Under the pieces are notes generated by a model. That model did no database searches, was not told the DNA's origin, and saw nothing but the letters and a program-made list of their open reading frames with translations. From Gemmatimonadaceae bacterium (lineage in GTDB: Bacteria; Gemmatimonadota; Gemmatimonadetes; Gemmatimonadales; Gemmatimonadaceae), in NCBI GenBank assembly GCA_045803545.1, contig JBJMOW010000005.1, forward strand, positions 608,001-672,000: 64,000 nucleotides of DNA. Direction: 5' to 3'. Positions 36,666 through 40,134 of the stretch are shown here, one piece after another; the first letter of the stretch is position 1; each line of letters begins with the position of its first letter. A program made the position numbers and the translations under genes.

Positions 36666-36861
36666 TTTGTCACCACGTAAACCACTCTGACGCAGAGTTT
36701 TGCAAGTTAGCCGTGCCCTGAGCGGGGGTCAATTGATTCTGGCCGCCTCTATGACAATCCCGTAATTCTCGATTCACGAATTCGTCAGGCGACAAGGTGA
36801 GAATTGAAGGCGGGAAAATCCGTCCGCGGATTCGTTGGAACTCCAACCGCTGAGTATTGAG

Positions 36862-37278
36862 ATGGGCGTACTCCGAAAAGGCTTCACGCTAATCGAAATC
36901 CTGATCGTCGTGGTCGTGCTTGGCGCCCTCGCTGCGATCGCCATCCCCCATTACGCTGGGGCGAAAACCAAGGCTTACCAGGCGGCGATGATGGCTGATT
37001 TGCGTACCGCCGCCATTCTGGAGGAACAGTACGCCGCCGATAATCATGGCCAGTACTTCTCGGGGTCGGCGACGGAGGACTCCCCGCTCAACGGCTTCAG
37101 GCCGTCAAAATCGGTGACCGTGACTTTCACTGCGTTCAACATCCTGGGCAGCCAGCTCGGTGACTGGGTGGCTATCGCACACCACGGTCAGTCGAGCGAG
37201 AATTGTGAGCTGCGTAGCGGAATCATTACCTGCACCAACGAACAGGGTTTGGCGACAGGCACGATCCGCTCGCACTAG
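36862..37278 (+). CDS. Type IV pilin-like protein
   Basis: Prepilin cleavage/methylation motif KGFTLIEILIVVVVLG; C-terminal Cys pair. Confidence 0.9.
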   Translation: MGVLRKGFTLIEILIVVVVLGALAAIAIPHYAGAKTKAYQAAMMADLRTAAILEEQYAADNHGQYFSGSATEDSPLNGFRPSKSVTVTFTAFNILGSQLGDWVAIAHHGQSSENCELRSGIITCTNEQGLATGTIRSH

Positions 37279-37850
37279 GCCCAGACGGAAGCTTTTTTCG
37301 CCCAGATCGTGTCCTGATATCGTTCCTTGAACGCATCGGCGGTCCGCTTCAGCGATCCAGCGTCGTGCGTGCCCTTGTACGGCGCAACACCCGCCCAGTA
37401 GAGCGCCTCCGGCGCGGCATTCGTATCAGGGAATTGTTCAACGATCTCGCGAAACCGGCGCTCTGCCTCATCCCACTTCTGCTCGGCGAAAGAAATTTGC
37501 GCGCGACCAAGCATCAACTGAGAGAGGAATTCGTCGTTGGGCAGAAATCCTTCTATACGATGGCGCTCCTCTCCGGCGGGATCGAGCTCCAGAATGGTCG
37601 GCGTCCACTGCGCGTTGAATTTCTCGCCGTACTTCTGAAATAGCGCAGAGTCGTCTTTGACGTGCACACGCGCGGGAATGAAGTTCTGGTTGACGAAGCT
37701 CACTACGCGCGGGTCAGGCCACACCTCGGCATCCAGCCGAGCACAGCCACTTCACATCGGCGCGGCGCTGAAATCGAGGAGAAGCGGTTTGTGCTGCTGC
37801 GCGGCATCCCGAAACGCGCTGTCGACGTCGTGCCTGAAGTTGATTTCCAT
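37275..37850 (-). CDS. Thioredoxin-fold + TPR protein, probable selenoprotein (UxxC, UGA at codon 33)
   Basis: AAGGAG RBS, ATG at 37850, MEINFRHDVDSAFRDAAQQHKPLLLDFSAAPM-UGA-SGCARLDAEVWPDP in frame with the 149-aa track ORF; cis-Pro WTPT; TPR-like FPDTNAAPEALYW. Confidence 0.85.
37725..37741 (-). promoter_or_regulatory. Candidate bacterial SECIS hairpin
   Basis: CTCGGC-TGGAT-GCCGAG begins after a 10-nt spacer following the UGA; G at loop position 2. Confidence 0.7.
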
Positions 37851-37884
37851 GATTTCTCCTTTTCCCGCACCGAAGGACTACAAG

Positions 37885-37907
37885 AAAAATGCCCCTCGCG
37901 GGGCATT
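37885..37907 (-). terminator. Intrinsic terminator
   Basis: AATGCCCC-GCGA-GGGGCATTTTT. Confidence 0.7.
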
Positions 37908-37922
37908 CGTCGATTTTAGCGC

Positions 37923-38270
37923 TCAGTCCTCGTACTTGCGAGGATGCGAGGGATGGGGTCGCTCCTCGTCCTCGGTATCGAACTCATCGTCGAGGTCGAT
38001 GAGGTCGTCGTCAAGGTCGTCGTCGAGATCGTCATCGTCGTCATCGAGGTCATCGTCGTCGAGGTCGTCGTCCTCCAGGTCGTCAGCCGCAGCGTCCTCC
38101 TCGTCTTCGTCCCACTCCTCGTCGTCGTCGAGATCTTCGTCGTCTTCCAGATCGTCCTCGAGGGTTTCATCTTCGGGATCGTCGTCCGTTGTCTTCTTCG
38201 CCAGCCACGCCTCAGGCTTCCCATCGTCCCCGTTCAGGAAGCTCCCCGCGGACTCCAGCATGGCGCACAT
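37923..38270 (-). CDS. Small, extremely Asp/Glu-rich protein
   Basis: AGGAG RBS; long DLDDD/EDDE tract; lies directly downstream of typA. Confidence 0.7.
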   Translation of the reverse strand: MCAMLESAGSFLNGDDGKPEAWLAKKTTDDDPEDETLEDDLEDDEDLDDDEEWDEDEEDAAADDLEDDDLDDDDLDDDDDDLDDDLDDDLIDLDDEFDTEDEERPHPSHPRKYED

Positions 38271-38289
38271 TACCGTGATCTCCTGGTTG

Positions 38290-40134
<1,845 letters not shown>

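Follow-up and report, generated by a model that had tools for sequence, protein, structure and literature searches.

Gene, reading frame and surroundings

The window, that is, the whole stretch of 64,000 nucleotides analysed from a contig of a Gemmatimonadaceae bacterium, holds on its minus strand a gene of 191 codons (37275..37850) whose codon 33 is an in-frame TGA. The gene opens with an ATG (37850-37848), set 5 nt from a ribosome-binding site AAGGAG (37856..37861), and closes with a TAG (37277-37275); with TGA translated as selenocysteine (Sec, U) the frame yields 191 residues and zero other stops, comprising a thioredoxin-like part (residues ~1-117) and a TPR-like helical part (~105-190). 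The TGA (37752..37754), in a column conserved among homologues, takes the first position of a UxxC motif (U33-S-G-C36) and would encode Sec33, while the codon of the predicted resolving cysteine, Cys36, follows at 37743..37745 and is invariant in all 20 rows of our alignment A1. After a 10-nt spacer (37751-37742) comes a putative SECIS hairpin (37725..37741), made of the stem CTCGGC (37741-37736), the loop TGGAT (37735-37731) and the stem GCCGAG (37730-37725). Further downstream, the codons of W82-T83-P84 (37599..37607) also correspond to invariant alignment columns, and presumably form the cis-Pro loop of the thioredoxin fold. Gene callers report the C-terminal part of this frame as a 149-aa ORF starting at GTG (37275..37724), which has neither U33 nor C36.

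The preliminary description of this DNA had proposed a selenoprotein overlooked by annotation, with this ribosome-binding site, ATG, TGA, spacer, stem and loop UGGAU, and with a 191-aa frame running into the 149-aa ORF. All of these elements are present in the sequence, and translation with TGA as U bears out the frame. It had also contemplated a sequencing error at the TGA; the contigs of four public runs, compared as contigs and not as raw reads, agree in showing no alternative base at 37754-37752. The segment 37589-37791 is spanned by one RNA-library contig, which departs from it at a single position away from the TGA; presence in such a library was not taken as transcription, and runs with small word shares were not used for habitat or expression.

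Upstream and on the same strand, an intrinsic-terminator-like hairpin with a T run (37880..37908) ends an acidic ORF ~30 nt before the start codon, although the two terminator-like hairpins found, against 1.4 expected in shuffles, do not make a significant count. This ORF (37923-38270, minus strand) encodes 115 aa, largely Asp and Glu, lies between typA (38290-40134) and the predicted selenoprotein gene, and recurs in 7/99 loci, those of the closest relatives. On the opposite strand a prepilin-like ORF (G-F-T-L-I-E; 36835-37278) converges on the gene and overlaps its stop codon; this ORF recurs in 6/99 loci. Matches to a sigma-70 promoter were zero in 36700-38500. Among 1,364 flanking ORFs no conserved neighbour appeared, the largest clusters reaching 11/99 loci, with flanks being short in many of them, so that nothing in the surroundings points to a substrate.

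The UGA codon among homologues

TGA occupies the column of codon 33 in 99 of the 99 loci that cover it, from an initial set of 100 loci, and in 123 of 124 distinct loci of a larger set, the remaining one having CGA; both counts include the gene of the window. The larger set derives from 132 loci tried, one of them without the column, and an unpublished genome (G279) is the source of L148, a locus that enters the tallies and the tree. Relatives from metagenomes (468 confirmed, the best 80 of the 468 kept) were retrieved with patterns that select the peptide after the UGA, and neither codon 33 nor synonymous choices. The loci with TGA span Gemmatimonadota, Acidobacteriota and one deltaproteobacterium, reach down to ~30% protein identity, and like the window gene show a purine-rich ribosome-binding site and a start ~32 codons before the TGA.

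At the protein level, the distant relatives present the column as a redox cysteine column. Out of 150 representatives, the 121 of at most 260 aa were scored: 47 carry CxxC, 60 are truncated or do not cover the column, and 14 show something else. A close homologue (P0086) also has Cys at the position of U33. The alignment of homologues, proposed earlier as a check, returned TGA or Cys in this column, and the non-Cys residue that was to count against the proposal is seen in rare cases: Trp in three of the best 120 database proteins (P0040, P0106 and P0121) and WxxC in one of the 121 distant representatives, both at the protein level, and Arg in one of the 124 loci. The Arg locus (L162, in genome G546) has CGA for TGA, yet retains a perfect hairpin in the 16-nt register described below, and its genome contains selA; either Sec was lost there recently or the assembly is wrong at this point. 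The Trp and Arg forms, each one base from TGA, appear to be sporadic losses, errors or readings by gene callers and not the state of the family. Two further copies are either damaged genes or assembly errors, namely L108, which meets a further stop at residue 151, and the copy of G314 (L154, L159), which is split over two frames and looks frameshifted.

Some full-length distant relatives (P0138, P0224, P0227, P0240, P0262 and others; 14/121 scored) miss one redox residue, showing SxxC, CxxS or GxxS, which hints at a non-catalytic role of the fold in some branches. In five longer proteins (P0145, P0156, P0164, P0168 and P0282; 354-866 aa) the family profile matches 3 to 6 separate stretches, which may be tandem thioredoxin domains of the same type.

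Database records mostly give a truncated protein. Among the best 120 matches, 116 are 139-155 aa long, 79 of them being exactly 149 aa, as expected from the earlier claim that gene callers would truncate the product. The four full-length ones carry Cys (one) or Trp (three), exceptions that are enriched among full-length entries since gene callers give full length only when the codon is not a stop. The NCBI entry HTD83331.1 is likewise truncated, at 153 aa, which fits the absence of an NCBIfam model.

The nearest homologues, 81-82% identical, occur in Gemmatimonadaceae genomes, which would make the host a relative of these. The distribution of the gene is patchy. A full-length copy was found in 12 of 201 genomes of the class, every one with one TGA and with selA, and in none of the three of the same genus. 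A phylum search of 301 genomes gave a copy in 17, ten of these new, and in Acidobacteriota, the phylum of G202, 21 of 251 genomes have one (21 matches with TGA, 1 without). All 21 of these acidobacterial genomes contain selA, compared with 198 of the 251 overall (one of the 198, G392, being unpublished), and in the class of the window selA is present in 185/201. Co-occurrence of the gene with selA is thus suggestive of Sec use, although it constitutes a weak test, selA being so common and kin not being independent. One host of a copy, G201, gave no match to selA, together with a partial selB above cut-off and two candidate matches to the tRNA-Sec model.

The hairpin downstream of the UGA

The 17-nt hairpin has a folding energy of -10.0 kcal/mol (z -3.55; 1/200 shuffles as good), and the first 40 nt fold at -17.6 kcal/mol, while a longer stretch of 65 nt lacks significance (z -1.33; 21/200 shuffles as good). 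The same geometry follows 305 of 109,505 genomic TGA triplets and, when this peptide is recoded synonymously 20,000 times, appears in 65 of the recodings; these counts serve as backgrounds and not as independent tests, because the geometry was defined after seeing the window gene and selD. An Rfam search gave zero matches in 36800-38400.

Bacterial SECIS elements are described in PMC13188914 (Fig. 2, summarising the consensus of Zhang and Gladyshev 2005) as having a loop of 3-9 nt, an upper stem of 4-16 bp, 16-37 nt from UGA to loop and an energy of at most -7.5 kcal/mol, with a G within the first two nucleotides of the loop, frequently with G or U after it. Against these values the hairpin of the window shows a 5-nt loop, a 6-bp stem, a distance of 16 nt, at the lower allowed limit, and -10.0 kcal/mol, and its loop U-G-G-A-U has G at position 2 and then another G; the SECIS-like hairpin with an early loop G proposed in the preliminary description therefore falls within all four published ranges. 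It shows no firm lower stem. Four extra pairs with a bulged G can be drawn there, mostly G-U and with one pair broken in 4/19 rows, and they were set aside as weakly supported.

Codon usage was compared across the 99 loci. Considering the 61 conserved degenerate positions with four or more codons, where the median share of the top codon is ~0.6, five of the six most codon-fixed belong to the hairpin: L39 (CTG 93/93; share 1.00), R38 (CGG 90/90; 1.00), A37 (GCT 91/92; 0.99), A41 (GCC 91/94; 0.97) and V43 (GTG 86/93; 0.92). S28 is the sole position outside the hairpin with a share >0.9. GCT makes up 13% of the Ala codons of the host genome, yet 91 of 92 sequences use it at this point. In the stem, L029 and L031 have A-U where the others have a G-C pair, with Arg turned into Gln; the two are sisters in the tree, and their double change counts as one event. 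Two more double changes were discounted, since both belong to L059, whose hairpin is a different one. One-sided breaks in the outer stem occur in L128, L164 and L165. As for the covariation sought for this hairpin, the loci show frozen synonymous codons and one compensatory change, and these sequence comparisons indicate selection on the hairpin at the RNA level.

Two registers within the family

Comparison of the 124 loci separates two registers of the hairpin. In 111 loci the distance from UGA to loop is 16 nt, the loop begins with UGG in 111/111, and at least 5/6 pairs form in all 111, the peptide being x-x-L-D/E-A-E. In the other 13 this distance is 23 nt, the loop reads CGUGAC in 12/13, the stem is 98.7% paired, with an A-U to G-C double change in two rows, and the peptide is x-x-M-D/G-A-V. 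The 16-nt register was tried on these 13 and rejected, with 33% of cells paired, no better than shuffles. Both groups share the string G-G-A-U-G-C (codons L/M-D-A), which provides the loop and the 3' arm in the 16-nt group and the 5' arm in the 23-nt group. Among the 111 loci of the 16-nt group, nine pair fully in both registers, 86 retain 5/6 of the pairs in the 23-nt register, and the remaining 16 retain fewer. For several of the nine, the 23-nt hairpin is more stable than the 16-nt one.

From these double-register sequences it may be envisaged, tentatively and at somewhat under even chances, that the SECIS slid by 7 nt within the family via intermediates able to form both hairpins, without a non-functional stage. 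If such a slide took place, it rewrote the first helix of the protein, which reads A-R-L-D-A-E-V in one group and x-x-M-D-A-V-T in the other. The second pairing may alternatively be a by-product of the conserved D-A and Y-P codons. The tree gives no direction of change: it is unrooted and includes 3 of the 13 loci with the 23-nt register, two of them as long branches, a motif filter having removed 11 loci, 10 of that group. A single SelB would have to read both loop types, considering that the host genome combines selD at 16 nt with a peroxiredoxin-like gene at 21 nt with the loop CGUGAUCA. A narrow literature search did not return the two-register split, and BSepDB may contain the sequences.

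Selenocysteine machinery and other selenoproteins of the host

The host genome (G000; 3.70 Mb, 93% complete) contains the full set of genes that the preliminary description had named for a search: selA (560.8 bits), selB (356.3), selD (378.8, with one in-frame TGA) and tRNA-Sec (64.9 bits), all above curated cut-offs. ARAGORN identifies the latter as tRNA SeC(tca), the sole tca tRNA among the 50 found in this genome. selD, which reads C-A-G-U-A-S-K around its TGA, stands directly before tRNA-Sec (C3:40928-42042; L009, L014), and selA and selB lie apart on C6. Past the TGA of selD lies a 5-bp hairpin with G at loop position 2 and, again, 16 nt from UGA to loop; this hairpin is no more stable than shuffles (z -0.05).

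Outside the window, a peroxiredoxin-like gene (G000:C4:1075562, plus strand; PF00578, 94.6 bits) has an in-frame TGA in T-K-G-U and, 21 nt after it, the loop CGUGAUCA of a 7-bp hairpin. Its features make it a probable second selenoprotein, possibly exported, as its N-terminus resembles a signal peptide. A genome-wide screen combining coding score and hairpin missed both known cases in its first version and gave ~77 candidates, mostly chance, in its second, selD and the peroxiredoxin alone being confirmed by family searches; the screen being so noisy, the listing of the host selenoproteome is incomplete. selA is nearly universal in these soil groups, although no formate dehydrogenase alpha above the TIGR01553 cut-off was found in the host genome.

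Fold and family membership

The product matches PF13098 (Thioredoxin_2) with 56.4 bits against a cut-off of 27, as well as TPR models weakly. Its AlphaFold model (pLDDT 95.9) displays a thioredoxin fold and then five helices, in line with the thioredoxin and TPR architecture proposed earlier; in this model residues 1-32 supply a helix (H9-19) and a core strand (E23-28) of the thioredoxin fold. The closest solved thioredoxin domains are those of DsbD-gamma (Z 15.9, rmsd 1.9, 111 residues) and DsbH (Z 15.8, rmsd 1.9, 118 aligned), and the helical part is closest to YbgF/CpoB and BamD. None of the solved structures covers both domains, which does not imply a new fold. The C-terminal stretch W183-W190 is strongly conserved. 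Neither a signal peptide nor a membrane segment was found, the best 19-residue hydropathy being 0.89, and the protein is thus soluble and probably cytoplasmic. The host genome gave no paralogue.

DsbD-gamma and DsbH are periplasmic CxxC proteins, DsbD also having a membrane domain. The protein of the window differs from them in that it lacks signal and membrane segments, has Sec by prediction and carries TPR-like helices. Identity with DsbD was rejected (32.1 bits against a cut-off of 330, and no membrane domain). YbbN/CnoX shares the order of thioredoxin and then TPR helices, but identity with it was equally discarded (282 versus 191 residues, TM-score 0.42, rmsd 11.3, 16% identity, no NCBIfam match). 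The NCBIfam models TsoB (NF045694), VPGUxxT (NF041382/NF041383) and Trx7/PDZ (NF041199) describe related thioredoxin-like domains with Sec, and the scores obtained are all below their cut-offs (48.7/805, 37.1/275, 22.7/350 and 18.9/300, bits/cut-off); no model of NCBIfam 20.0 covers the protein.

The protein does fit a described family. Table 1 of PMC13188914, a review of 2026, includes selenoproteins named 'thiol:disulfide interchange protein', with PF13098, UxxC and WP_011366075.1 as representative, listed there as predicted with high confidence and citing Kryukov and Gladyshev 2004. Supplement 4 of PMC1794560, a paper of 2006, gives three members of ~190 aa, from Geobacter metallireducens, G. 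uraniireducens and Syntrophus aciditrophicus. Compared by eye with these (PMC1794560), the protein of the window shares the length of ~190 aa, the absence of a signal peptide, the Sec in the same column, and the motifs LLDF..P.U.GC, the WTP loop and APEA.Y..GV. The published members read U-I-G-C-x-x-M-D-A-V, like our 23-nt group at the protein level, in contrast to U-S-G-C-A-R-L-D-A-E, with the 16-nt spacing, in the window. A bridge between them is provided by L059, from a deltaproteobacterium, which has the published active-site peptide DFFNPG-U-IGC and is 40% identical to the window protein over 190 residues (E 3e-46).

Taken together, (i) the PF13098 domain, (ii) one predicted Sec in UxxC, and (iii) the full-length likeness, C-terminal helical part included, as judged by eye and through L059, make it highly likely that the gene belongs to this selenoprotein family. 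It also has the features of bacterial selenoproteins in general, with selA, selB, selC and selD in the genome and Cys homologues, at the protein level, in the same column. The window protein, like the family (listed as predicted in PMC13188914), is a predicted selenoprotein. The gene was therefore hidden as regards automatic annotation, as the preliminary description had put it, but not as regards the literature, where PMC13188914 traces the predicted family to 2004. The main text of PMC13188914 makes no mention of Gemmatimonad, Acidobacteri or TPR, and a search listing of literature on selenoproteins with TPR or in Gemmatimonad showed nothing on this family. BSepDB screened 64,762 genomes, Gemmatimonadota included, with all reported families (PMC13326102), and this branch may already be in it.

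Decoding of the UGA and alternative readings

The complete machinery, the conserved column and the constrained hairpin all support the earlier reading of a Sec-containing redox protein, and on this basis Sec is almost certainly decoded at UGA 33. A CxxC thioredoxin gene whose first Cys codon had turned into a stop, as a pseudogene or private nonsense change, might explain the patchy occurrence (12/201 genomes of the class, 0/3 of the genus) and would be at home with the few damaged loci (L108, G314). Such decay is already refuted by conservation and retains a practically negligible probability: the TGA persists in 123/124 loci down to ~30% identity across two phyla and a deltaproteobacterium, frames are open on both sides with a ribosome-binding site and start ~32 codons upstream, and synonymous freezing concentrates at the hairpin. 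It is also extremely improbable that Trp or some other standard amino acid is inserted at the UGA, by code change or suppression, to give WxxC. The three database proteins with Trp and the single distant WxxC, at the protein level, would agree with that, against which TGG is found in 0/124 loci, five loci (L026, L029, L030, L055 and L056) end in a true TGA stop after the conserved C-terminus, tRNA-Sec is the sole tca tRNA among 50 in the host, the column is that of the redox Cys, and a change of code leaves the hairpin unexplained. Two products, a 32-aa leader and a 149-aa protein re-initiated at the GTG at 37724 under control of the hairpin, are very unlikely as well. Gene callers do report the 149-aa ORF, and some 32-aa product is expected anyway because Sec insertion competes with termination. 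The short form would nonetheless be deprived of U33 and C36, although C36 is invariant; the modelled thioredoxin fold draws one helix and one core strand from the first 32 residues, and the Cys homologues are one chain.

The main rival to a disulfide reductase accepts Sec insertion and sees the protein as a chaperone gated by redox state, in the manner of E. coli YbbN/CnoX, or as a redox-switched binding adaptor. YbbN/CnoX combines holdase activity with hand-over to GroEL. The architecture of thioredoxin and TPR, the presence of YbbN among the Foldseek matches, the resemblance of the TPR part to YbgF/CpoB and BamD, which bind partners, and the strong conservation of W183-W190 all speak for such a role. 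On the other hand, the match of YbbN over the whole chain is poor (TM-score 0.42, rmsd 11.3, 282 vs 191 residues), DsbD-gamma and DsbH are nearer to its thioredoxin domain, and the keeping of a costly Sec together with a resolving Cys fits catalysis; a chaperone or adaptor appears rather unlikely. The protein would more probably than not be a stand-alone cytoplasmic enzyme that reduces disulfides or carries out redox repair on specific protein clients. As a whole, the observations very probably reflect a working selenoprotein gene that belongs to the described thiol:disulfide interchange protein family.

Regarding the mechanism of this proposed reductase, translation would start at 37850, and SelB carrying Sec-tRNA(Sec) would bind the hairpin whose loop begins 16 nt after UGA 33, leading to Sec insertion, as suggested by conservation and the established bacterial pathway. 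Fold and motif suggest that Sec33 would then attack a disulfide or oxidised thiol of the client and that Cys36 would resolve the intermediate, in a selenenylsulfide cycle. The two or so pairs of TPR-like helices would most likely dock or select the client or partner protein.

Implications for the family

Since the family was already predicted in 2004, the gene of the window is mainly an annotation fix. It corrects a systematic error, the active site being missing in 116 of the best 120 database matches, and it places a family first described from three anaerobic deltaproteobacteria (PMC1794560) as common in soil Gemmatimonadota and Acidobacteriota. The two SECIS registers are what this analysis adds to the family. 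Together with the natural double-register members they offer a cheap test of the spacing and loop needs of SelB, and such register pairs also bear on how an RNA signal shapes protein sequence.
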